This document shows positions 7,608 to 33,519 of a stretch of DNA of 64,000 nt, in pieces; the first letter of the stretch is position 1; every line of letters starts with the position of its first letter. The DNA lies in contig NIVC01000975.1 in the NCBI GenBank assembly GCA_002269645.1, forward strand, positions 124,001-188,000. Direction: 5' to 3'. Source of the stretch: Macrostomum lignano. Its lineage: Eukaryota. The notes beneath the pieces are model-generated. The model was not told where the DNA came from, did not search any database, and was given only the letters and a program-made list of their open reading frames with translations. A program made the position numbers and the translations under genes.

Positions 7608-8615
7608 TTATTTTAATATTTTAATTAATTTCCGTGTCAGCTGGTACGGCTGGAGTTCAGCTCTAGTGAATGACCGCGTGGGGGATTTAGGGTTAAAGGT
7701 TTGAGATAAAAAGTAATAGTCTCCAGAGTCGGAGGTAAAATGTCTGTCTATTTTATGTACATCAAGGCTGAAGTATGGATCTGTAGCTCTTCTTTTGGTG
7801 TCTTTCTCTAGCTCTCCAGGTAGATATAAAAAGCGTAGAAACTCAGAGTTTGTCAGTATGTATGGTGATTCAACTCCTGGAAGCTTAGGGTAGTTTGAGG
7901 TGTCTGTTCTATGAGATGACTTAAGTTCGACAGTGTCTTGTTTAATTGCATGGGACGGTTTCAATCCAGTCATGCGCGTGACTTCATTGTTCAGTTGCTC
8001 TATAACAGTGGGGAGCCGGTCTGTCCACTTGGTATAGTATTGGCCACCTTTTAGTTTCAGCTCCTCTGCTGTCTGCTTAGTGAATAGCCTCTTGGCTAGA
8101 GTTAGATTGAATCTTTCCACAAAAGCCTGGTCTCTGTGGAGCTCAGTTCTTCCATAGCGAATTTTTGTGTCATACTTATGTAGAAGTGATATCACTGCAC
8201 CCATGAATTCTTTACCCGGGTCCGTCATAAAGATTTCAGGGTAACTAAGGGGTGAGTTTTTATAAATATCTTGGAGGGCGGCTGCAACTGCTTCTGACTT
8301 CTTCGTCTTGAGTGGGCGAGCTTCCTTATATCTGGAAGCAATGTCAATAATTGTAAGAGCATACTTGTAGCCTGAGTCGTTGGGGAGAAACAAAAGATCT
8401 GCTTGGTGCGCTTCATTAGGTTTATAGATGCTAAAGTGAGGTCTTGTAAATTTTACTGGTGGGAAATAGACTTGAAAGACAGCCTGCTTAGAGAGCCACT
8501 TTTCTACTTTAGCTTTTGGTTCCTTACTTAGTTCTGCGAGTTTGGTGACTGCATTTTTTCCTACAAAGAATCCTTTGTCGCTGTAGTAGAGTTTTTTAAG
8601 TTTCTGATCTGTCAT
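7608..8615 (-). CDS. Polinton retroviral-like (rve) integrase, full length (~335 aa)
   Basis: The DDE triad is intact (HQADL, MTDPG, VERFN) and YALTIIDIASRY is present. The likely start is MTDQKL at 8615, in AAAAAATG context. No C-terminal chromodomain is seen. Confidence 0.93.
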   Translation of the reverse strand: MTDQKLKKLYYSDKGFFVGKNAVTKLAELSKEPKAKVEKWLSKQAVFQVYFPPVKFTRPHFSIYKPNEAHQADLLFLPNDSGYKYALTIIDIASRYKEARPLKTKKSEAVAAALQDIYKNSPLSYPEIFMTDPGKEFMGAVISLLHKYDTKIRYGRTELHRDQAFVERFNLTLAKRLFTKQTAEELKLKGGQYYTKWTDRLPTVIEQLNNEVTRMTGLKPSHAIKQDTVELKSSHRTDTSNYPKLPGVESPYILTNSEFLRFLYLPGELEKDTKRRATDPYFSLDVHKIDRHFTSDSGDYYFLSQTFNPKSPTRSFTRAELQPYQLTRKLIKILK

Positions 8616-16150: not shown

Positions 16151-16521
16151 GCCTTCTGATTGGCTCTCCATTCTTGACTCTCTCTTTAGTCGCGAACTCC
16201 ACCCCTCTCTTTATTATTCTAGGCTCAACCCCCCCCCTTAAGTTAGTTTTATAAATACACTGGTTTAGACCCTGCGCCTACTTACTGCTCCTTCTGTCCT
16301 ACTATTCAACTTAGCTCTAATTATTTAGTCTCATTAATTATTTTCTTTACAGCTTTCTCTTTTGTCTCTTTACTGAACGCTCAATTATTCTCATCCTTAA
16401 AGTAAATAATATTACTTTTACAGTCCCAAAAGTCTCTACCGCTCCGCATTGCAGCTCAAGCAGTCACAGGCCTCGAGCATCGGCATCTCAGCACTGATCG
16501 CAGCCCCACAGTTTCTCAGAG

Positions 16522-17199
16522 ATGCGCCGGGGCTCTGTAGCCTGCCCCTTTTGTCCCAGGCGGTTCTGCCGCACTCGAGCGGCAGTGTCGCAGTACTTGC
16601 GTCATGTGCGGTCACACGGAATGGGCTGCGACTCGGAGCCAGAGGAGGCGGCTGCGACCAACTCAGAAGCTGGCAGAGCGGCGGCGGTCGAGCAGGTCGC
16701 GTCTCGCAATGAGTCAGCGATGCAGCCGTGTGCAGACGGCAGTCGTGCAGTGACGAAGCGTCACGAGTGCGAGTCAGTCGGAAAGACCCGAGCTACAAAG
16801 AGTGCTGCAACAAGGCATTGTCAGGCTCAGGGTGTCCAGAGGCCGATCCAGTGCAACACTTGCCAGAAGAATTTCTCCAGAAAAAGCGAACTCAAAGCTC
16901 ACATTAGTGCAGTGCACTGGAAGAAGAAAAGGCACGAGTGCAAGTGGTGTGGGAAGTCCTTCGCAAAAGCATTTCATCTACACGTGCACATCCGGTCTCA
17001 CACTGGAGAGAGGCCGTTTGAGTGCGATGTGTGCGGCAAGAGATTCAGTGTCAGCAGCAGCTTTACGAGGCACTCCAGAGTGCACACCGGAGAAAAGCCA
17101 TTTGAGTGCGAGATGTGCGGCAAGAGATTTAATCGAAGCAGCCACCTCGCTAGGCACTCAAGAAGGCTGCATGCTGGAGAAAAGGCATTTTTTGTGTAA
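16522..17199 (+). CDS. C2H2 zinc-finger protein, paralog 1 (intact, 225 aa, atypical N-terminal finger plus 4 fingers)
   Basis: N-terminal CPFC...HVRSH, followed by CxxC-x12-H-x3/4-H fingers with TGE(R/K)PF linkers. Confidence 0.85.
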   Translation: MRRGSVACPFCPRRFCRTRAAVSQYLRHVRSHGMGCDSEPEEAAATNSEAGRAAAVEQVASRNESAMQPCADGSRAVTKRHECESVGKTRATKSAATRHCQAQGVQRPIQCNTCQKNFSRKSELKAHISAVHWKKKRHECKWCGKSFAKAFHLHVHIRSHTGERPFECDVCGKRFSVSSSFTRHSRVHTGEKPFECEMCGKRFNRSSHLARHSRRLHAGEKAFFV

Positions 17200-17519
17200 G
17201 GTCTGCGGATTTGTTGTTTTCCACTCATCGTACTACATATTGTCCAAGTAGTCAGCACTCCTAGTATCCTAATTATTGTTGCATGTCTTTTTACACTTTT
17301 TTAACAACAAGCATTTAGCGTTTTTGTTTGCCCAGTCTGAAATACAGATGTAGGCTGTTAAATGCGTGGCTAAAATTTCGTCTCAAACTTTTTCCCTTGT
17401 ATTTATAATTACGCCGATGGCATGCAAACTTCATTTATTGTTTGTTGTAATGCTTGTCTTGATGCGATCATTATTTTGACATTGATTTAGGCCCTGTAAA
17501 TTGTAAAATTCTGCAGTTG

Positions 17520-18203
17520 TGGTGGAATTTGCTCAGCTCTCAGGGCCTCAGCCAGCGGGCTGTGTTTGAGCTGCACCAGTTTTCTGGGGAGTTCATCTTC
17601 AGGTGTACCTTCTGCACTGGCTGCTCGGTCGCTACCTGCTCATGGCGGTATTCGAAGCCGATCAAAGCACCAATACCTGTCCGGTGGTCCCATGTGTCTG
17701 CACTGGGTATATCCGCTCAGAACTTTCGTTTTTAATGGCTTGTTCGCTCGATCTGTCTCCGAGATGGTTGTCCCTCGCTCGCTGAGCTCTGTCTCTGAGG
17801 TGGTCACGATGCATCATCAAATCTCGAACTTGGTGATCTTGGACTCGCCCTACTTGTTGAGTCACAGCTTCTTGTTGGGCTCCTTCTCTTCACTCTTTAT
17901 TGCAGGTATCCTAAGATCAGTGCTGTATCGCAGCTATTTAAGAAGTAGTACTTTAACCAGCCTACTGTCTCTAGCAACGAATGAGGTCCATTTGTCAATA
18001 ACAAGTACCGTAATTCCGGGATGCTTAAACTTTAAAACAGTCTTCCCAGAACTCTGGCCACAGCCGCTTTGTCAATGCCACAGGATCATTCATCACAGAG
18101 AAGTCCTGTGTTTTCGTTTTAAATCACTAGAAGGTTGTTTGCTTCTAATTAGCCCAGATCAGCATGCATTCGGCACCATGGTTCCTTTGCTATTGGCAAT
18201 TGC
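17520..18203 (-). mobile_element. Decayed Ty3/Gypsy integrase fragment, unit 1
   Basis: The minus strand reads KEPWCRMHADLG...IPE...TNGPH...HGTTG, with stops and frameshifts. It is homologous to the blocks after paralogs 2-4. Confidence 0.75.
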
Positions 18204-18206
18204 AGC

Positions 18207-18976
<770 letters not shown>

Positions 18977-19153
18977 CGAATATTTAACTCAGAAGTGGCT
19001 GCAGAAGTGGATCACCGGTCTTGTTATTTACTGTGGGCCAAGTGCTTTAAAGTTGCTCACTATCGTTTAACATCTCTTGTCGTTACGTATTCATGATCCT
19101 TGTTGAATTCTTTTAATGTAGTGCAGATGGCAGCTAATCCATAACCAGTTAGT

Positions 19154-19823
19154 TACAGCACTCAATGACCAGTTAGTGACAGCACTCAATGACCAGTTAG
19201 TGACAGCACTCAATGACCAGTCAGAGACAGCACTCAATGACCAGTTAGTGACAACACTCAATGACCGGTTAGTGACAGCACTCAGTGACCAGTTAGTGAC
19301 AGCACTCAATGACCAGTCAGAGACAGCACTCAATGACCAGTTAGTGACAACACTCAATGACCGGTTAGTGACAGCACTCAGTGACCAGTTAGTGACAGCA
19401 CTCAATGACCAGTTAGTGACAGCACTCAATGACCAGTTAGTGACAGCACTCAATGACCGGTTAGTGACAGCACTCAGTGACCAGTTAGTGACAGCACTCA
19501 ATGACCAGTTAGTGACAGCACTCAATGACCAGTTAGTGACAGCACTCAATGACCGGTTAGTGACAGCACTCAGTGACCAGTTAGTGACAGCACTCAATGA
19601 CCAGTTAGTGACAGCACTCAATGACCGGTTAGTGACAGCACTCAGTGACCAGTTAGTGACAGCACTCAATGACCAGTTAGTGACAGCACTCAATGACCAG
19701 TTAGTGACAGCACTCAATGACCGGTTAGTGACAGCACTCAGTGACCAGTTAGTGACAGCACTCAATGACCAGTTAGTGACAGCACTCAATGACCAGTTAG
19801 TGACAGCACTCAATGACCAGTCA
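19154..19823. repeat. 24-bp minisatellite (gacagcactcaatgaccagttagt), ~28 copies
   Basis: Read directly from the sequence. It explains the TALNDQLV/VTNWSLSA ORFs. Confidence 0.97.
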
Positions 19824-20509
19824 GTCACGGCATCCACTGTTGTGCAATGCACTACAAGATCAGCATTTAACTTCTTGTTGCTGCCAAAGATCAGCAGTTG
19901 TTTCCCCACTCTCTATTATGTCATTACCTACTGTAAAAATACCCAGCACTCATATTCTACTTATTCTGTTCCTTTTAACTTTTGTGAGATGAAGCTTTAT
20001 TCTTGTCTGCCTGATGAAATTTGGTCGTTGCACAACTTTCACAGCCGGTGTTTAAGTTTCCCCAGTCTAAAATGCGTGGGTAAAATTTCACTTCAAAATT
20101 TTTTTCCTATTTATCTACAAATTACACTGGTGTAATTGCAAACTGCACTTATTGTTTGTTTCAATGCTTGTCTTAAAAAGTTGATTGCTTTGAATTGACT
20201 TTAATAGGCGACTTGTAGGGTTTTAAATGCAGCTGTTGTCATGGGCAGTTGCTCAGCTCTCAGGGCCTCAGCCAGCGGGTATTCAGTCAGCTGATCAAGT
20301 TGGTTGAGTGTTTCAGCTGCAGCAGTTTTCTGCTGAGGCTTCGCATTGAGGTGTTTCCCGCACTGAGCTCTCAGACAGTAATAAATTACAAGAAAAAGAT
20401 TTGGTTACATTTTACAATTCAATGTGCTTCTTATATAGGACATTCCTTGATTTAAATCTGGTGTGTCCTGCTTATTTGCACTACTCTACGTGATCTCCCA
20501 TGCTAAAAC

Positions 20510-21630
20510 CACCCTACCCACCCCATTCCTCACCCTACCCACCCTATTCCTCACCCTACCCACCCCATTCCTCACCCTACCCACCCTATTCCTCACCCTA
20601 CCCACCCCATTCCTCACCCTACCCACACTATTCCCCACCCTACCCACCCTATTCCTCACCCTACACACCCTATTCCTCAACCTAGCCACCCTATTCCTCA
20701 CCCTACCCACACTATTCCTCACCCTACACACCCTATTCCTCACCCTACACACACTATTCCTCACCCTACCCACCCTATTCCTCACCCTACACACACTATT
20801 CCTCACCCTACCCACCCTATTCCTCACCCTACACACACTATTCCCCACCCTACCCACCCTATTCCTCACCCTACACACCCTATTCCTCAACCTAGCCACC
20901 CTATTCCTCACCCTACCCACCCTATTCCTCACCCTACACACCCTATTCCTCACCCTACACACACTATTCCTCACCCTACCCACCCTATTCCTCACCCTAC
21001 ACACACTATTCCTCACCCTACCCACCCTATTCCTCACCCTACACACACTATTCCTCACCCTACCCACCCTATTCCTCACCCTACACACACTATTCCTCAC
21101 CCTACCCACCCTATTCCTCACCCTACCCACCCTATTCCTCACCCTACACACACTATTCCTCACCCTACCCACCCTATTCCTCACCCTACCCACCCTATTC
21201 CTCACCCTACCCACCCCATTCCTCACCCTACCCACCCTATTCCTCACCCTACCCACCCTATTCCTCACCCTACCCATCCTATTCCTCACCCTACCCACCA
21301 TATTCCTCGCACTACCCACCCTATTCCTCGCACTGCCCACCCTATTCCTCGCACTACCCACCCTATTCCTCGCACTACCCACCCTATTGCTCGCACTACC
21401 CACCCTATTCCTCACCTTACACACCCTATTCCTCGCACTACCCACCCTCACCCTACCCACCCTATTCCTCGCACTACCCACACTATTTCCCACCCTACCC
21501 ACCCTATTCCTCACCCTACACACCCTATTCCTCAACCTAGCCACCCTATTCCTCGCACTACCCACCCTATTCCTCGCACTGCCCACCCTATTCCTCGCAC
21601 TACCCACCCTATTCCTCGCACTACCCAATC
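20510..21630. repeat. 21-bp minisatellite (accctacccaccctattcctc), G-rich on the minus strand
   Basis: Read directly from the sequence. It explains the TLPTLFL ORF. Confidence 0.97.
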
Positions 21631-22432
21631 CATTCCTCTCCCTCCTTATTACACAATCACATTTTAGAGTATAAGTTTACTTTGTTAGTGTTCCACAAAG
21701 AGCCTTATTTTTTTCTATTTTCCACGAACAAAAAATAGAGTTTTAATTTAATTTTTGTACAAAACATTTCTCAGAGGAATTTTTGCCCCTTGCTCAGCTT
21801 CCAGACGTCAACCAGCGGTTTCTATGGAGTATGTTCGCTAGCTCTTTTATTCCAAATCTTCCGAGACGGAACACTTAAGATGCCCGAAAAATCTCCAGCT
21901 CAAAATCGCACACTTTGAGATTCCAGAATAGCGTTCCAGATTGAAGAAGCACCAGACTGGGTGCCTTTTTCGAAAATGCTATTGTATTTTAATTTTTCAC
22001 CTGAAAAGCATGGGCATTACCTCAATTGTACCAGTTAGATTGGATAGATTTGCTTCTCCAGTTTGTGTCGGCTGCTCCATGTAGACAGCTCTGCTGGCAT
22101 TGATCCAGCAAGCTGCAGTTAAGTTCCACTAAGTCCACGGAGAAGTTTTTCGGTCCGTCAGAAACCCTGAAAATGCCACCTCTCATAGACAAGTGCAGAG
22201 TTCTTTCGAGAAAGATTTTAATGCATGGCACTAAACTTATCGTAACTTGTGCCCAATCGGCGTGTGCTGATTGGTTGTAAACACCCACCCCAAGTCAACC
22301 CCCTCTGCACTGCACCCCTCCGCCGTGAGGTTTAAATCACCTGACTTTTACTCAGACTGCCTCACCTTTCTCGCGCTGCATGAATTTTTTTATCGCACGG
22401 AGTGGCGTGAGAGCTGCCGCGCCTAGGCTGCA

Positions 22433-23506
22433 GTGGCCGAGATTTCAATTGACCAAATCACTGCAAGGCAGCTTAGAGACCGTCTACGCCAACTGGGACT
22501 GCCCAGTGGCGGTCGCAAGCGAGAGTTGCAAGTCAGACTGGAACAAGCCAGTTTCTCAAATCAAGCCAAGCGACGTGGACGGTCAACAGCCACTCACTCG
22601 AGCGAAATCGACCGAGTCAGCACCAGCAGCAGCGACGACGATGAGGAAGCGACTCTGGACGAGGCTGGCACCCAGCAGGGCACTGACGATCTGGACCAGA
22701 GGATCGCCCGTCAGGAGAAGCTGCTTCGGCTGAGGACTCTGCAACGCCAGACTGCTGAGATCGAGGCTGAGCTGGAGAACAAGCCTCTCCAACAGAGCCG
22801 TAAGTTGCTGAGCCCCTTGCCGATTGACTGGTCCCCCGCTGCCTCTGAGCCGGAGCTGGGACTGCCAGACCTGGGCCTTCAAGGCCCCTACAGCACTTCT
22901 GCCAGGCCGTCGGGACCGTCAAAGGCCTTTCTGGTGAAGGACTTTATCAACCGTGATGGCGAGGAGCCCGCCTCTGGCGAGAAGTCCAGAGTCCGGACTG
23001 AGCAGATCTCGGCGGGTCAGTGGGTAGCAGGCAGCAACCGAATCCTGTTGAAACTCCTCGACGAGGGTTCCCTGGTCACCGTTAAGGATGGCGCAGTTGA
23101 TCTTGAACAGCTGAAGGCCTACGTTCGCTACTGCGTCCAGTTCGGCGAGTTTATGCACCAGGGTTTCAGTCAGGCCGCCCTCAACTGTTACGCTGAAGAC
23201 TTCAGGATCCTGCAACATCAGTCGAGCGGCAGCTGGGAGCGGGAGTCGCTGCAGCTGCTATCCAAGCACATTCTGGCACCAAAGTCAAATCAGGGTGGCA
23301 ACGCGATCTCCCAGCGCACCAACTTCAAGCCCAGTAAGCCAAAGCAGCAGCCGTCCGGCTTTGTCGGCCCGATCGATCCTGAGGGGCGGGAACTGTGCGT
23401 GAAGTTCAACCGCAACGGCTGCCTACGGCGCGACTGCAAGTTCAGGCACGTCTGCTCCGCCTGCTACGAGGCGCGCCCGCGCCAGTTCTGCACTTCAAAA
23501 AACTAG
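22433..23506 (+). CDS. gag-like ORF1 with N-terminal SAP motif and C-terminal CCCH/CxxC zinc finger
   Basis: ITARQLRDRLRQLGLPSGGRKRELQVRLEQ (SAP-like) and CVKFNRNGCLRRDCKFRHVCSAC. The ORF starts at GTG in gcaGTGgcc context. Confidence 0.8.
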   Translation: MAEISIDQITARQLRDRLRQLGLPSGGRKRELQVRLEQASFSNQAKRRGRSTATHSSEIDRVSTSSSDDDEEATLDEAGTQQGTDDLDQRIARQEKLLRLRTLQRQTAEIEAELENKPLQQSRKLLSPLPIDWSPAASEPELGLPDLGLQGPYSTSARPSGPSKAFLVKDFINRDGEEPASGEKSRVRTEQISAGQWVAGSNRILLKLLDEGSLVTVKDGAVDLEQLKAYVRYCVQFGEFMHQGFSQAALNCYAEDFRILQHQSSGSWERESLQLLSKHILAPKSNQGGNAISQRTNFKPSKPKQQPSGFVGPIDPEGRELCVKFNRNGCLRRDCKFRHVCSACYEARPRQFCTSKN

Positions 23507-25100
23507 ATCGCGGCCGGCCGGGGGGCTCAACTGGCAGCGCAGCTGCCCCGGCGGAAGCCAAAGTCAAACCCCCGCTGCCCCCCCGGCTGGCCCTGTCCCA
23601 AGACACTCGAGTCCGTTGCTTTCTCATCCGACCTCGCCACAGCCGCCTGGGAAGCTGAGCTGACTGACGATCCTGACCGCGAATTCCTGCTGAATGGCAT
23701 CCGCAACGGCTTCCGACTCACCTGCCCTGACCCGTCAGAAAGAGCCTCAACTATGTCAGAAACCCAGAACTACCTATCAGTCAACGGTTACCGGCAGCTG
23801 GTCGAGCAGCAGGTACGAGAGGAAGTCCTCAATGGCCGCTACGTTCAAGTCAGTGACAAACCGGAGGTCATCAGCGCCCTTGGAGCCATTCCAAAGAGCA
23901 ACAACAAGATTCGACTCATCCACGACTGCTCTAACCCTCCGGGTCTCTCCCTAAACAGCCGATTTTCTTCCGACTACCGTATCAAGTTCGAGACCGTCAG
24001 TCACTTCACCGACAAGCTGCAACCCGGTTGGTTTATGGCCAAAGTCAACCTCGCCAATGCCTACCGGAGTGTCGGCATCAGCCCGAACGATTTCCGGCTC
24101 ACCGGCTTGAAGTGGAAATTCAGCGATCAGAGCAGCGATTCGTACATCTGCGACACGCGGCTCCCCTTTGGCGCTGCTGCCTCAGTGGAAGTCTTTCACC
24201 ACCTGAGCCAGGCCGTCAAGCGCATGATGCAGAGACGGGGCTTCAACGATATCGGCAGCTATCTCGACGACTTCGCCGTAGCAGCCCCCAGCAAGGACGA
24301 CTGCCAGCTCGCTCTCGACACCCTGCTCAATCTGCTTGGCTTCTCCATCAACTGGAGCAAGGTGGTGGCGCCGTGCACCAGACTGGTCTACCTGGGCGTC
24401 CTCATCGACACCGTCAGCGGCCTGCTGGAGCTTCCGAAGGACAAGCTCGACGCCACCAAGTCTCAGCTGCAGTCCGCGCTCTCTCGCAAGCGCATCACCA
24501 AGCGTCAACTTCAATCGCTCTGTGGCCGCATCAACTGGGTCTGCCAGGTGGTCCGCATCGGGAGGTGCTTCCTGAGACCACTCCTGCTCGAGCTCAGCGA
24601 CCTGAAGCAGCAGCGGCACAAACTGCGCGTGCACAATGATCTTCGCGAGATCCTTAGCTGGTGGGACGCCTGCCTGGCCGCCTCCCCCAGCTGCAAAATC
24701 TGGCGTTCCAGCGGGCCCAGCTGGGCCATCGAGTCCGACGCGTCCAAATGGGGCGGCTGCGGCATCATCCGCGGCCCAGGCACCACCAGCTGGCTCATCA
24801 TGGACTGGCACCGCGACTCAATCGAGATCGAGCCGCTGCACATCAACTTCAAGGAAAGTCTCGCGCCAGTGCTTACGGCCCTGCATTTCCAGCAGCAGCT
24901 GCATCCGGGCTTGTGATCTACTCTGACAGCACCGCCGCAGTCGGCGCCATCAACAAGGGCTCCTCACCAAATCGGCTCGTCAACTCGGCTCTGCAACAGC
25001 TGATGCTCCTCGCTGCGCACCGCGACCTCTCCGTCCAGGCCTTCCACGTCCCCGGGACATTCCAGATCTTCGCTGATAGTGGCAGCCGAGCCGATGACAT
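23507..25100 (+). pseudogene. Reverse transcriptase / RNase H (pol), frameshift near 24910
   Basis: WEAELTDDPDREFLLNGIRNGF, KVNLANAY (catalytic D to N), RLPFG, YLDDF, ESDASKWGG and HINFKE, then -1 frame VIYSDST...FHVPGTFQIFADSGSR. Confidence 0.9.
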
Positions 25101-26218
25101 CAGCGAGCTGACAAACTTCCTGCTCCGGCTCTTTGGCTCTATTCACTTCGACCTTCGCAACCTTATCGAGCACACCCTCTCGCCAGCCACCTGCGAATTT
25201 CTCGCCTTACAGATCGCCTGCCTCAAGTCCCGAGCGCGAACTTCAGCAAGCGCTACCGTGAGCTCTGCCACCTGGCCTTCGCTGAGACAACCGCGCGCTC
25301 TTATCGCTGCCAGATTGACTCCTGGAAGCGGTTCTGCAAGCAGATGCGCATCGACAGCACCCGACCGTCTCTACAGCAGGTCGCGCGTTACATCATCGCG
25401 CTGTCCGACCGCCTCTCCTCGCATGCCAGCGTCGGTGCGTACATTAACGCCGCAGAACTGCACTGCAAGCTCAAGACCGGCCGCGGCCTTCCTCGCGGCC
25501 CCCGCATCGACCTGCTCCTCCGCGGTGTTCAGCGCAAACTCGCCAAGCCGCCGGCGCGCAAGGCGCCCATCACTCCGGGTGACCTCCTCAAACTGCGAGG
25601 AACCCTGCGCCTGCAGCAGCCTCTAGATGCAGCCTTCTGGGCGGCAGTCCTGGTCGGATTCTGGGGCCTCCTGCGCCGCGCCAACCTGTGCTGCTCGAAA
25701 TCGTTCCCACCACCTGGCGAGGCGGTCACCTGCGGCGACCTGCAAGTATCACCGGATCTGGCCATCCTTCACATTCGGCGCTCCAAGACGAACCAGTTCC
25801 GCCAGCGAGTGCACCGCGTTGTCCTGCCGCGCCTCCGGCACGCGGCTCAGCACCCGCTGTGCCCGGTGGCAGCGCTGCTTCACCACCTGCGCATCAACCA
25901 GCCGGACCGCGCCGCTGCTGCCCACCTCTTCGCCTACCGAAGCAGCGGCGGCCTGACGCCTCTACGGTCGTAACAAGCACCCGGTTCTGTCGCCTGTTTC
26001 GGCACGTCGTCCACCGCGCCGGCCTGGCAGACCGGTCTCTGTCTCCTCACAGCCTTCGACGCGGCGGCGCCTCGCTGGCGTTCCGCGCCGGTGTGCCGCT
26101 GCCGGTCGTCAAGGCCCTGGGCGACTGGCGAAGCTCGGCGGTCGAAGTGTACCTGGGGCTGGAGAAGGGCTTCGACCTCCAGCTGGCGGCTGTTCGCAAA
26201 CTGTCTCAGTGCCTATAA
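25098..26218 (+). pseudogene. Tyrosine recombinase, frameshift near 25960
   Basis: TARSYRCQIDSWKRFC (N-terminal domain), GLLRRANL (R), RSKTNQ (K), HSLRRGG (HxxR), GDWRS (W) and EVYL (Y). Confidence 0.9.
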
Positions 26219-26798
26219 TTTTTTCGTTTGCCTGCTCTGGGTTTGTAGCTGGTGTGCAGTCTGCTTTCTTCTTTTTTCCTCTGTCTTGGAATCTATTGCA
26301 CGGGTTTTTTCCCCTCTGAACTCGCGTGTTTTCCTATTTCTCGTTTTATCTTTTGCGCAATGATTACTGTTGCTTTTATCGATTAAGTGCCGTTTTAATG
26401 ACTGTTGTATTTTACTTTTTTGTTTGCTTGCAAGTGTGACCCAACTTCCTGCGTGCCCCCCCCCCCGTTTTTTTTTCTTTCACTTTTTCTCCCATCATTT
26501 TTTCGGATTTTCGACCGTCGTATCCACTCGCACTGTACTCGTTACTCGCAAACACTCGCGTCCGCCTTCCACTTCCCTTGGGGTGTGGTGTTTAACTCTC
26601 AAATATCTCCGTCTCTGAGTTCTTCAGTCTTTTCGCTCTAAAAGTGAAATAAATCTATTTTCCACATAGGGATTGCATTTTATTCAATCTCGGATTACAA
26701 AATAACGAATTATTTACCGCTCCGCATCGCAGCTCAGCAGAGACGGGCTTCGAGCATCGGCATCTCAGCACGGATCGCAACCCAACAGTTTCTCAGAG

Positions 26799-27480
26799 AT
26801 GCGCCAGGGCTCTGTCGCCTGCCCCTTTTGTCCCAGGCGGTTCTGCCGCACCCGAGCGGCAGTGGCGCAGTACTTGCGTCATGTGCGGTCACATGGAATG
26901 GGCTGCGACTCGGAGCCAGAGGAGGCGGCTGCGACCAACTCAGAAGCTGTCAGAGCGGCGGCGGTCCAGCAGGTCGCATCTCGCAATGAGTCAGCGATGC
27001 AGCCGTGTGCAGACGGCAGTCATGCAGTGACGAAGCGTCACGAGTGCGAGTCAGTCGGGAAGACCCGAGCTACAAAGAGTGCTGCAACACGGTACCGTAG
27101 GGCTCAGGGTGTCCAGAGGCCGTTCCAGTGCGACGCTTGCCAGAAAAAGTTCTCGAAAAAAAGCAACCTCATTCATTCTCTGGGGCATCTGATCTGCACG
27201 TGCACATCCGCTCTCACACTGGAGAGAGGCCGTTTGAGTGCAAGGTGTGCGGCAAGAGATTCAGCAGCGTCAGCAGCCACCTCACTACGCACTCCAGGGT
27301 GCACACAGGAGAAAAGCCATTGAAGTGCAAGGTGTGCGGGAAAAGATTCAGTGACGGCAGCAACTCTGCTAGGCACTCCACGTTGCATACATGAGAAAAG
27401 CCGTTTGAGTGCAGGATGTGCGGCAAGAGTTTCAATCCAGGCCGCGGTCTGACAAGACACTCTGAGCAGCGAAAATTTAA
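26799..27480 (+). pseudogene. C2H2-ZF paralog 2, internal deletion and frameshift near 27170, stop at 27392-27394
   Basis: Same N-terminus as the other paralogs. The finger array is split across frames. Confidence 0.85.
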
Positions 27481-28645: not shown

Positions 28646-28987
28646 CCATTTGCCTTTGATTGCTCAAAAGACATTTAGAAATAACACATATTCACTCGGT
28701 TAAGTATCCATAGGAAATTGGCCGTTTGAATTTTAAGGGAAGAATTAATGCATGTTACGAGCTAGTATTTGCATAATCCTCGTTAAAATCAGCATTTGTC
28801 TATCTAAACCAAATGAAACATATGTTTCTATATGAAGCATATCGACTATATATGCTTTCGAAACCAGAAAGTATCATTCAGTTTTTTTAGATGTCTTTCA
28901 AACACAGATTACAATTGACAAAATCTCTGCCGCTTCGTATTGATGCTCAGGTACAGACGGGTTTCGCAGTCCCACAGTTTCTCAGAG

Positions 28988-30490
28988 ATGCCCCGTCGCT
29001 CTGTCGCCTGCCCCTTTTGTCCCAGGAGGTTCTGCCGCACCCGAGCGGCAGTGGCGCAGTACTTGCGTCATGTGCGGTCACACGGAATGAGCTGCGACTC
29101 GGAGCCAGAGGAGGCGGCTGCGACCAACTCAGAAGCTGTCAGAGCGGCGGCGGTCCAGCAGGTCGCATCTCGCAATGAGTCAGCGATGCAGCCGTGTGCA
29201 GACGGCAGTCGTGCAGTGACGAAGCGTCACGAGTGCGAGTCAGTCGGGACGACCCGAGCTACAAAGAGTGCTGCAACACGGCACCGTCGAGCTCAGGGTG
29301 TCCAGAGGCCGTTCCAGTGCGACACTTGCCAGAAGAAGTTCTCCAGCAAGAGCCACCTCAAAGCTCACATGAGTGCAGTGCACAGGAAGGAGAAACCGCA
29401 CAAGTGCAATCGGTGTGGGAAGTCCTTCTCAAGGGCATCTGATCTGCACGTGCACATCCGTTCTCACACGGGTGATAGGCCGTTTGAGTGCAAGGTGTGC
29501 AGAAAGAGATTCAGGGTCAGCTGCAGCCTCACTAAACATTCTAGAGTTCACACCGGAGAAAAACCATTTGAGTGCAAAGTGTGCGGCAAGAGATTCAGCG
29601 TCAGCAACCACCTCACTGCACACTCAAGGCTGCACACAGGAGAAAAGCCATTTGAGTGCAAGGTGTGCGGCAAGAGATTCAATCAAAGCAACAACCTTAT
29701 TACACACTCAAGGGTGCACACAGGAGAAAAGCCATTTGAGTGCCAATTATGCGGCAAAACATTTAGTGACGGCAGCAGCTTTACAAGGCACTCAAGGCTG
29801 CATACCGGAGAAAAGCCGTTTTAGTGCAAGGTGTGCGAAAAAAGATTTAGTGATAGCAGCGGCCTCACTAAACATTCTAGAGTGCACACAGGAGAAAAGC
29901 CATTCGAGTGCAAGGTGTGCCGCAAGTGGTTCAGCGTCAGCAGCCGCCTCACTAGACATTCTAGACTTCACACGGGAGAAAAACCATTTGAGTGCAAAGT
30001 GTGCGGCAAGAGATTCAGTGAAAGCAGCAACCTTACTACACACTCCAGAGTGCACACAGGAGAAAAGCCGTTTGAGTGCAAAGTGTGCGGCAAGAGATTC
30101 AGTGAAAGCAGCAACCTTACTACGCACTCCAGAGTGCACACAGGAGAAAAGCCGTTTGAGTGCAAGGTGTGCGGAAAAAGATTCAATCAAAGCAGCCATC
30201 TCACTGCACACTTCAGGTTGCACACAGGAGAAAAGTCTTGAGTGCGAGATGTGCGGTAAGAGATTTAATCGAGGCAGCAACCTTACAAGACAATTAAGGC
30301 TGCATGCAGGAGAAGAGCCATTTTTGTGTAAGGTGACCATTTCTGCGGCCAGAGATTCAGTGACCGCAGCAACCTCTAAACACTCAAAACTACACACCGG
30401 AGGAAAGCCATTTGGGTTCAATATGTGCGACGTGAGATTCGATTGAGGCGGCATTCTGACAAAGCACTCCAAGCAGCGCATTGTGTAGCG
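28988..30490 (+). pseudogene. C2H2-ZF paralog 3, ~12 fingers, in-frame TAG at 29822-29824 and TGA at 30239-30241
   Basis: ATG at 28988. The finger array continues in frame past the TAG, which replaces the GAG of the FEC motif. Confidence 0.85.
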
Positions 30491-31835: not shown

Positions 31836-32121
31836 CTGAGGCAAACTTTTTATTGTCAAATTGTTTCTGGCCAGAAACACAGAATTCATTATAGAAAGCT
31901 GTTAAAGCGTGCAACAAATAAATGTATTCTCATAAATCTTTGTCTACGTTTTTTCTGTCTAAAAGTGGATTAGATCAGATTTTACACAGCCATTCCAATA
32001 TCATTCAAAGTCGGATTATAGATTAACGAATTATTTACCCCTCCGCATTGCAGCTCAGGCAAGAGACGGGCTTCGAGCATCGGCATCTCAGCACTGATCG
32101 CAGCCCCACAGTTTCTCAGAG

Positions 32122-33030
32122 ATGCCCCGTCGCTCTGTCGCCTGCCCCTTTTGTCCCAGGAGGTTCTGCCGCACCCGAGCGGCAGTGGCGCAGTACTTGC
32201 GTCATGTGCGGTCACACGGAATGAGCTGCGACTCGGAGCCAGAGGAGGCGGCTGCGACCAACTCAGAAGCTGGCAGAGCGGCGGCGGCCGAGCAGGTCGC
32301 GTCTCGCAATGAGTCAGCGATGCAGCCGTGTGCAGACGGCAGTCGTGCAGTGACGAAGCGTCACGAGTGCGAGTCAGTCGGGAAGACCCGAGCTACAAAG
32401 AGTGCTGCAACACGGCACTGTCGAGCTCAGGGTGTCCAGAGGCCATTCCAGTGCGACACTTGCCAGAATAAGTTCTTTAGCAAGAGCCACCTCAAAGCTC
32501 ACATTAGTGGAGTGCACAGGAACGAAAAACCGCACAAGTGCAAATGGTGTGGGAAGTCCTTCTTAGATGTAACTCATCTACACGTGCACATCCGGTCTCA
32601 CACTGGAGAGAAGCCGTTTGAGTGTAAGATATGCGGAAAGAGATTCAGCGTCAGCTACAGCCTCACTAAACATTCTAGAGTGCACACAGGAGAAAAGCCG
32701 TTTGAGTGCAAGGTGTGCGGCAAGAGATTCAGTGACAGCAGCAGCCTCATTAAGCACTCAAGGCTGCACACAGGAGAAAAGCCATTTGAGTGCAAGGTGT
32801 GCGGCAAGAGATTCAGTGACAGCAGCAGCCTCATTAAGCATTCAAGGATGCACACAAGAGAAAAGCCGTTTGAGTGCAAAGTGTGCGGCAAGAGGTTCAG
32901 TGACCGCAGCAACCTCTCTAAACACTCAAAACTACACACAGAAGAAAAGCCAGTTGAGTCCAAGGAGTGTATTAAGAGTTTCAACCAAAGCAGCGGTCTG
33001 ACAAGGCACTCCGAGCAGCACAATGTATAG
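32122..33030 (+). CDS. C2H2 zinc-finger protein, paralog 4 (intact, 302 aa, 6 fingers plus 1 degenerate)
   Basis: Open ORF with the shared N-terminal domain and TGEKPF linkers. Confidence 0.88.
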   Translation: MPRRSVACPFCPRRFCRTRAAVAQYLRHVRSHGMSCDSEPEEAAATNSEAGRAAAAEQVASRNESAMQPCADGSRAVTKRHECESVGKTRATKSAATRHCRAQGVQRPFQCDTCQNKFFSKSHLKAHISGVHRNEKPHKCKWCGKSFLDVTHLHVHIRSHTGEKPFECKICGKRFSVSYSLTKHSRVHTGEKPFECKVCGKRFSDSSSLIKHSRLHTGEKPFECKVCGKRFSDSSSLIKHSRMHTREKPFECKVCGKRFSDRSNLSKHSKLHTEEKPVESKECIKSFNQSSGLTRHSEQHNV

Positions 33031-33519
33031 CGAATATTCAACTTCCCTGCTTTTATTCTACAGCCGTCTTGGTCCTTTTTGTGCGCCAAGCGTTTCATCA
33101 AGTTGCTTACTTATGTTTAGCAGACCTTTCGTTTCATAATAATGATCTTTGTTGAATTTTAATTTGTTGCTCTTGTTGCTTCTAACCTCTAGTTGCTGGC
33201 ATACTTTTCTATTTTTTTACTTCCAAAATTAGTCAGCACTCATAATATACTTACTTATTGTTTCATGTCTTTTGCAAACTCATGTGTTTCGTTTAGCGAA
33301 ATGAATCGTTATTTTTGTGTGCATTAAGGATTTTGGTAGCTTCACGACTTTCAGATTCTGTGTTTATATTTCCCTAATCTGGAATGCAGCTGCAAACTTG
33401 TAAGTGCAACTTTTTTCTTTGTATTTTTAAATTACACTGATTGCATTGTGAGCTTCATTTATGTTTTTTTAATGTGTCTTGATGTGTTGATTATTTTGAT
33501 ACTGATTTAGGCCATGCAA

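Follow-up and report, generated by a model that had tools for sequence, protein, structure and literature searches.

A dead Ngaro-type retrotransposon of Macrostomum lignano with a deeply conserved candidate signal for -1 frameshifting

How does a retrotransposon that carries a tyrosine recombinase express enzymes whose reading frames lack start codons of their own? For this group of elements the answer had previously been left as a guess, and the question is posed in concrete form by a broken element at positions 22249-26594 (plus strand, as are the parts of the element given below) of the stretch analysed here, a 64,000-nucleotide piece of the Macrostomum lignano genome (contig NIVC01000975.1, forward-strand positions 124,001 to 188,000) hereafter called the window. 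We propose that the family of this element makes Gag-Pol by programmed -1 ribosomal frameshifting at an A AAA AAC heptamer and its recombinase as a spliced fusion to the Gag N-terminus, a reading to which we give a probability of roughly 0.85. The predicted signal appears to be real and deeply conserved, and the copy in which it was noticed is an otherwise ordinary dead Ngaro element. Such a reading would provide exact, testable sites for both enzymes of a widespread group, the slip site spanning 7 nt and the intron 2.4 kb.

The element is placed, by its repeat layout, its ORF order and its lack of a methyltransferase, as a broken copy of an Ngaro-type tyrosine-recombinase retrotransposon. Ngaro elements, which belong to the DIRS order, are described in excerpts of four papers as carrying gag, RT/RNase H and a tyrosine recombinase, no methyltransferase, and split direct repeats in the arrangement A1-ORFs-B1A2B2 (PMC8547959, PMC3783388, PMC3266345, PMC9210276), and the window's family shares all three traits, as the first-pass annotation had supposed in calling it Ngaro-like and as domains and repeats agree. 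In an alignment of 4296 nt the window copy differs from L103, a full copy, by 193 mismatches; it begins with repeat A1 (22249-22391, 90% to the A repeat of L103) and stops after repeat B1 (26513-26594, 94% to the B repeat); the whole series A1-ORFs-B1-A2-B2 is found in L103 and in members of three other families, L072, L080 and L067, whereas the window copy retains just A1 and B1 of it, and L101, examined for split direct repeats, showed none. The gag ORF (22433-23506) encodes an N-terminal SAP domain (E 2.6e-6), a coiled-coil-like region and a C-terminal Cys/His zinc-finger region (23396-23476). It is followed by pol (23507-25212), in which RT, with YLDD at 24260-24271, is matched by PF00078 and RNase H is recognized from motifs alone, and which extends to a splice acceptor about 100 codons past RNase H; a Pfam search of pol returned no methyltransferase match, unlike in DIRS1 and PAT. 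Last comes the tyrosine recombinase exon (25213-26218), with HSLRRGG and GDW..Y motifs and a PF00589 match (E 1e-5) slightly below the curated cut-off; in the window's family, no ATG precedes its conserved start. This copy has been inactivated by a GTG at the gag start where L103 has ATG, an extra C, a 7-nt deletion at 24908 that disrupts pol and leaves an assembled ORF of 23507-24916, a frameshift in the recombinase near 25964-25973, and the loss of A2 and B2.

Where gag meets pol, the sequence reads TCA AAA AAC TAG, so the slippery heptamer A AAA AAC (23497-23503) lies in the gag frame with the TAG stop (23504-23506) immediately 3′ of it. A spacer of 8 nt (23504-23511) separates the heptamer from a predicted stem whose 5′ arm, GGCCGGCCGGGGGG (23512-23525), would pair with a 3′ arm at 23579-23592 over 14 bp with one G-U; the minimum-free-energy fold of 23490-23620 includes this stem (-55.7 kcal/mol, z -2.25, with 3 of 200 shuffles equally good). 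On direct reading, the first-pass annotation had all of these coordinates right. It had also claimed that pol needs recoding, which holds for the window's family: pol has no usable start ahead of its conserved N-terminus, where the WEAEL..DPDREFLLNGI motif (W at 23648) precedes the first pol ATG at 23753. In the assembled window copy pol nevertheless shares the gag frame behind the single TAG, being set there by a C run at 23578-23584 that is seven long in this copy only. Since short-read contigs of two sequencing runs (X1 and X2) cross this run with zero gaps and zero mismatches, it is not an assembly slip; the seven-C allele is real and is private to the window copy.

Is the heptamer kept where the rest of the element has diverged? 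A protein search of the same genome, in which 150 of 504 candidates were scored, yielded 52 stretches of divergent matches that were analysed with 8 from the window's own family and grouped into 13 families (L107 and L096 being merged by hand, and F5 and F11 being 79% alike), and the pol of the sampled families is 40-48% identical to that of L103. The heptamer claimed in the window proved to be conserved among them, for in 12 of the 13 gag ends A AAA AAC, with a stop 0-1 codon on and the -1 frame open into pol. With the Lys-Asn pair held fixed, codon usage would produce the heptamer with a chance of 0.021 per family, and the product over families, 7e-21, overstates the significance because families share ancestry; across families, the heptamer occurs far more often than chance would allow. 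Since nearly all relatives share the slip signal, the window's family likely uses a -1 slip for pol. In half of the 12 families (F1, F6, F7, F11, F12, F14) the conserved region has already run for 117 to 567 nt when the first ATG of the pol frame is reached; that ATG precedes the pol anchor in the other half (F2, F3, F4, F5, F8, F10), whose pol therefore need not depend on recoding. In family F9 one TGA-CTC separates gag from a pol of the same frame, in 11 of 11 copies (L080, L097, L109-L117), and this is probably a readthrough family within a frameshifting clade. Some copies (L074-L076, L077/L078/L089 and L087) carry long in-frame tandem repeats (PAAG, PASDVAQPACL, PPAQ) between heptamer and RT that stretch the linker of Gag-Pol to as much as about 800 nt, and the -1 frame is still open in many copies.

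A wider view comes from a scan of metagenome contigs, of which the best 80 of 141 loci were taken; a gag zinc finger was present in 57, which fell into 46 clusters. Across these clusters, from the best 80 of 141 loci, pol lies at -1 in 27, in frame 0 in 15 and at +1 in 4, and a strict slippery heptamer occurs within six codons of the stop in 20 of the 27 clusters at -1, against a background of 33 in 13,729 positions. Two of the frame-0 clusters were set aside (L183, an A7 fusion, and L187, with a heptamer plus an indel); each of the remaining 13, again from the best 80 of 141 loci, has exactly one stop, which is TAG in 10, TGA in 3 and TAA in none, as compared with TAA in 9 of the 27 clusters at -1 (Fisher p 0.019). 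Stop readthrough appears to be used by F9 and by these 13 clusters, whose arrangement of one leaky TAG or TGA between in-frame gag and pol resembles that of MuLV, where gag-pol is of the stop-readthrough type. The stop contexts of these relatives (TAG-G, TGA-CTAG, TAG-CTAG) share in this likeness; in contrast to MuLV, no conserved pseudoknot was found, and it is to relatives, not to the window's family, that readthrough applies. On a quick maximum-likelihood tree of 56 pol proteins, built with no outgroup, with L187 and L188 omitted as too short and L183 and L147 labelled by hand as frameshifting, the readthrough label changes 8 times, at least 5 of the changes being forced by starred branches, and the mode of pol expression in related lineages appears to have alternated repeatedly between a -1 slip and reading through one TAG or TGA. 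One clade of six clusters (L127, L145, L158, L170, L177, L190) is without a strict heptamer and has either its own upstream pol ATG or a +1 overlap with gag, which amounts to a third mode of pol expression. Such a natural series of replacements between frameshifting and readthrough should be useful for studying the Gag:Pol ratio and the need for 3′ structure. A scan of viral contigs for relatives gave no matches, and a protein search with the gag alignment gave 3, covering SAP only.

How, then, would the recombinase be made? The first-pass annotation missed a splice that appears to serve it. A donor, GTAAGT (22800-22805), stands in phase 1 of the gag frame, and a pyrimidine tract with an ACAG acceptor (25195-25212) in phase 1 of the recombinase frame. 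The start of the recombinase was located in 11 M. lignano families, and all 11 have the same arrangement there, a pyrimidine tract plus CAG in phase 1. In five families the SAP domain is followed, about 100-120 codons on, by a GTRAG donor in phase 1, with none in F6 and a later one in F1. From these conserved donors and acceptors an intron of 22800-25212 was expected, and the joint 22799->25213, of the GT..AG type, was then found in run X2, in one contig of depth 2.3 with 30 nt on its short side. None of the runs is recorded as RNA; X2, X5 and X8 are probable RNA, the status of X2 being a guess, and, as all runs were available as contigs, depth says nothing on expression. The joint was not seen in X5, X8 or the DNA run X13, and among genomic copies 0 of 28 start at the acceptor and 0 of 34 end at the donor. 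Among 59 metagenome loci, drawn from the best 80 of 141 and not deduplicated, the best acceptor is in phase 1 in 56, and in 41 of the 44 with strong pyrimidine tracts, as against acceptors in 38 of 500 control windows, whose phase is mixed. At the same 59 loci the recombinase lies at -1 relative to pol in 26, at +1 in 27 and in frame 0 in 6, and because this relation varies, with broken copies adding noise, a fixed -1 slip cannot serve the recombinase. It is therefore likely that the recombinase is made from a spliced RNA and not by a second slip, which contradicts the published guess of Poulter and Butler (2015), as quoted in the accessible part of a later paper (PMC13003380), that a programmed frameshift probably gives access to the recombinase ORF.

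If the element splices, as the X2 joint suggests, pol could in principle come from a spliced or separately initiated RNA of its own, the -1 overlap being a by-product. A phase-1 AG does lie just ahead of the pol motif (23641-23642), an ATG in the pol frame occurs close to the junction in several families, and the clade of six clusters shows that pol ATGs or a +1 overlap can go with the absence of a strict heptamer. Yet of 50 elements only 5 carry a strong acceptor where pol begins, a rate similar to that of the control windows (38 of 500), and spliced pol was rejected on this comparison; nor does any joint enter pol in the three probable RNA runs. A pol with its own RNA or start would, moreover, explain neither why AAA, AAC and the A ahead of them are conserved nor the swaps among classic slippery heptamers, which makes this explanation quite improbable beside frameshifting on the ribosome.

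For the window's own family, a DNA search of the genome gave 35 matches, 30 of which were analysed. Over 26 places, with two double-counted sites excluded, the C run is six long in 17, five in 8 and seven in 1, the window; among short-read contigs the six-C form occurs in X13, X5 and X8, the five-C form in one X2 contig and the seven-C form in X1 and X2. At 22 distinct junctions pol lies at -1 in 10, at +1 in 9 and in frame 0 in 3; that just 10 keep the -1 relation reflects the decay of most copies and the instability of the G and C runs. Where the pol ORF measures 858-862 codons, it is a -1 frame that runs open through the heptamer, and an uninformative codon-position test of the linker counted variant alleles as 7/7/4. 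The first-pass annotation had blamed the odd frame of the window copy on one extra C, and so it turned out, the common allele lacking that C and intact copies placing pol at -1. It had also left the choice between frameshift and readthrough undecided; the frameshift half, at A AAA AAC, is supported, and readthrough of the TAG is not supported for this family, given the same intact copies.

In L005, L007, L064 and L183 the heptamer has A7 in place of A6, and gag is thereby joined to the pol-side frame; these copies reflect either homopolymer error or slippage of the reverse transcriptase. They also speak for an origin of Gag-Pol in a polymerase that adds one A to the run, by stutter in transcription or reverse transcription and not on the ribosome, which we regard as very unlikely. 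Least credible of all is that the window's family reads through its TAG in the manner of MuLV, the heptamer being incidental: the in-frame pol behind one TAG, the stem 3′ of the stop, the reality of the seven-C allele and the readthrough layouts of relatives favour it, but that allele occurs in 1 of 26 places, frame 0 is seen at just 3 of 22 junctions, of which the two besides the window carry additional indels, the window copy is dead at its gag start, pol and recombinase, intact copies of the family contradict it by having pol at -1, and TAG-A is a poor context for readthrough.

The stem, offered by the first-pass annotation as a conserved stimulator, is no more than a candidate for that role; in 17 copies 97% of cells are paired with 0 compensatory pairs, a covariation test that is uninformative because the copies are too alike, and the stem is not general among metagenome relatives. 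As a predicted fold it is just modestly beyond chance. Minimum-free-energy z-scores at +5 were no lower than in other windows (p 0.52 for metagenome elements at -1, 0.55 for readthrough elements and 0.055 for the M. lignano families). Opening-energy ranks were enriched in the M. lignano families only, 6 of 12 falling in the top decile (Fisher p 0.001), while 24 frameshift and 14 readthrough elements from metagenomes showed none and families F8, F10 and F12 had no downstream structure; a crude scan for pseudoknots gave a weak signal (p 0.04 in the M. lignano families, 0.44 and 0.32 in the other sets). A different candidate is a TTTTA motif, often present twice, which lies 19-75 nt past the recoding site in mixed frames in 11 of 13 M. 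lignano families (L061-L099), a 12-fold enrichment; elsewhere the enrichment is merely 2.5- to 3-fold, and the motif is absent from the window's family.

Taken together, these features suggest a sequence of events in which, on the unspliced RNA, most ribosomes would halt at the TAG and release Gag, and a minority would move backward by one base at A AAA AAC and proceed through K-K-L into RT/RNase H, probably assisted in the window's family by the GC stem that begins 8 nt further on. Removal of the intron 22800-25212 would take out the C-terminal half of gag, the slip site and pol, and would fuse about 122 Gag codons, the SAP domain among them, to a recombinase that is 454 codons long in L103. 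The plan recalls that of retroviruses, in which A AAA AAC serves as a -1 frameshift site in MMTV gag-pro and in HTLV. Common to both are an X XXY YYZ heptamer that ends gag and a short spacer and, as predicted here, 3′ structure, an excess of Gag over Gag-Pol and a spliced RNA for the 3′ gene, as for env; the Ngaro family differs in having no protease, DDE integrase or env, in a stop that abuts the heptamer, in 3′ structure that is not conserved between families and in a spliced product that would retain the Gag N-terminus. The heptamer class is described in a review (PMC5009743) that also summarises a survey of gag-pol recoding in LTR retrotransposons, with pol at -1 in 28 of 51 animal elements, and both the mechanism and the class are those proposed here for the Ngaro family.

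A broader idea, speculative and in our view rather unlikely to hold in full, is that Ngaro elements, lacking protease, integrase and envelope, follow the retroviral plan of a recoded Gag-Pol and a spliced 3′ gene with many flips between -1 slippage and readthrough, that a SAP-recombinase may steer integration, and that the UUUUA 3′ of the site, kept in both modes in the families of this host, may be a shared stimulator bound by protein, possibly the Gag zinc finger, in place of a pseudoknot. Such a fusion, if true, would be a candidate factor in the choice of targets, which fits the effect of ORF1 on Ngaro insertion sites reported in the part of PMC8547959 available.

How much of this is new? 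For Ngaro elements, whose expression was merely guessed at in print, the gag-pol slip site is here mapped, readthrough variants are found and the recombinase is apparently spliced. What is new is the mapping of that site, the apparently recurrent change to readthrough and the recombinase splice (one contig, from a probable RNA run); the mechanism of frameshifting itself is anticipated in print. Poulter and Butler in 2015 and Goodwin and Poulter in 2004 may propose a frameshift for gag-pol too. The first-pass annotation knew of no characterisation of such recoding in an Ngaro-like element, which is right in so far as no paper was found that names the site, and too generous in that, in the accessible part of PMC13003380, a 2015 review is quoted as guessing at frameshifting at least for the recombinase ORF. 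Across the openly accessible main-text literature on Ngaro and DIRS elements, no paper was found that names the heptamer, readthrough or a spliced recombinase, and the same holds for the available portions of PMC3783388, PMC6681497, PMC3266345, PMC9210276, PMC7192593, PMC3212892 and two bioRxiv preprints; the first 300,000 of the 449,034 characters of PMC5009743 do not mention Ngaro or tyrosine recombinase elements.

Some further observations concern the surroundings of the element and its full copies. In contigs of X5 and X8, repeat B runs straight on into repeat A (window 26594/22253), as expected because full copies contain a B1-A2 junction; a circle would give the same picture. The L103 copy is flanked by 62-nt perfect inverted repeats (L103:1489-1550 and 8440-8501) and may sit inside a DNA transposon. 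Directly upstream of the window element are minisatellites at 19090-19917 and 20510-21650, with units of 24 nt and 21 nt. The element itself is located between two C2H2 zinc-finger genes of a tandem cluster of duplicated genes, several of them broken (window 16466-18950, 26743-27480, 28932-30450 and 32066-33070).
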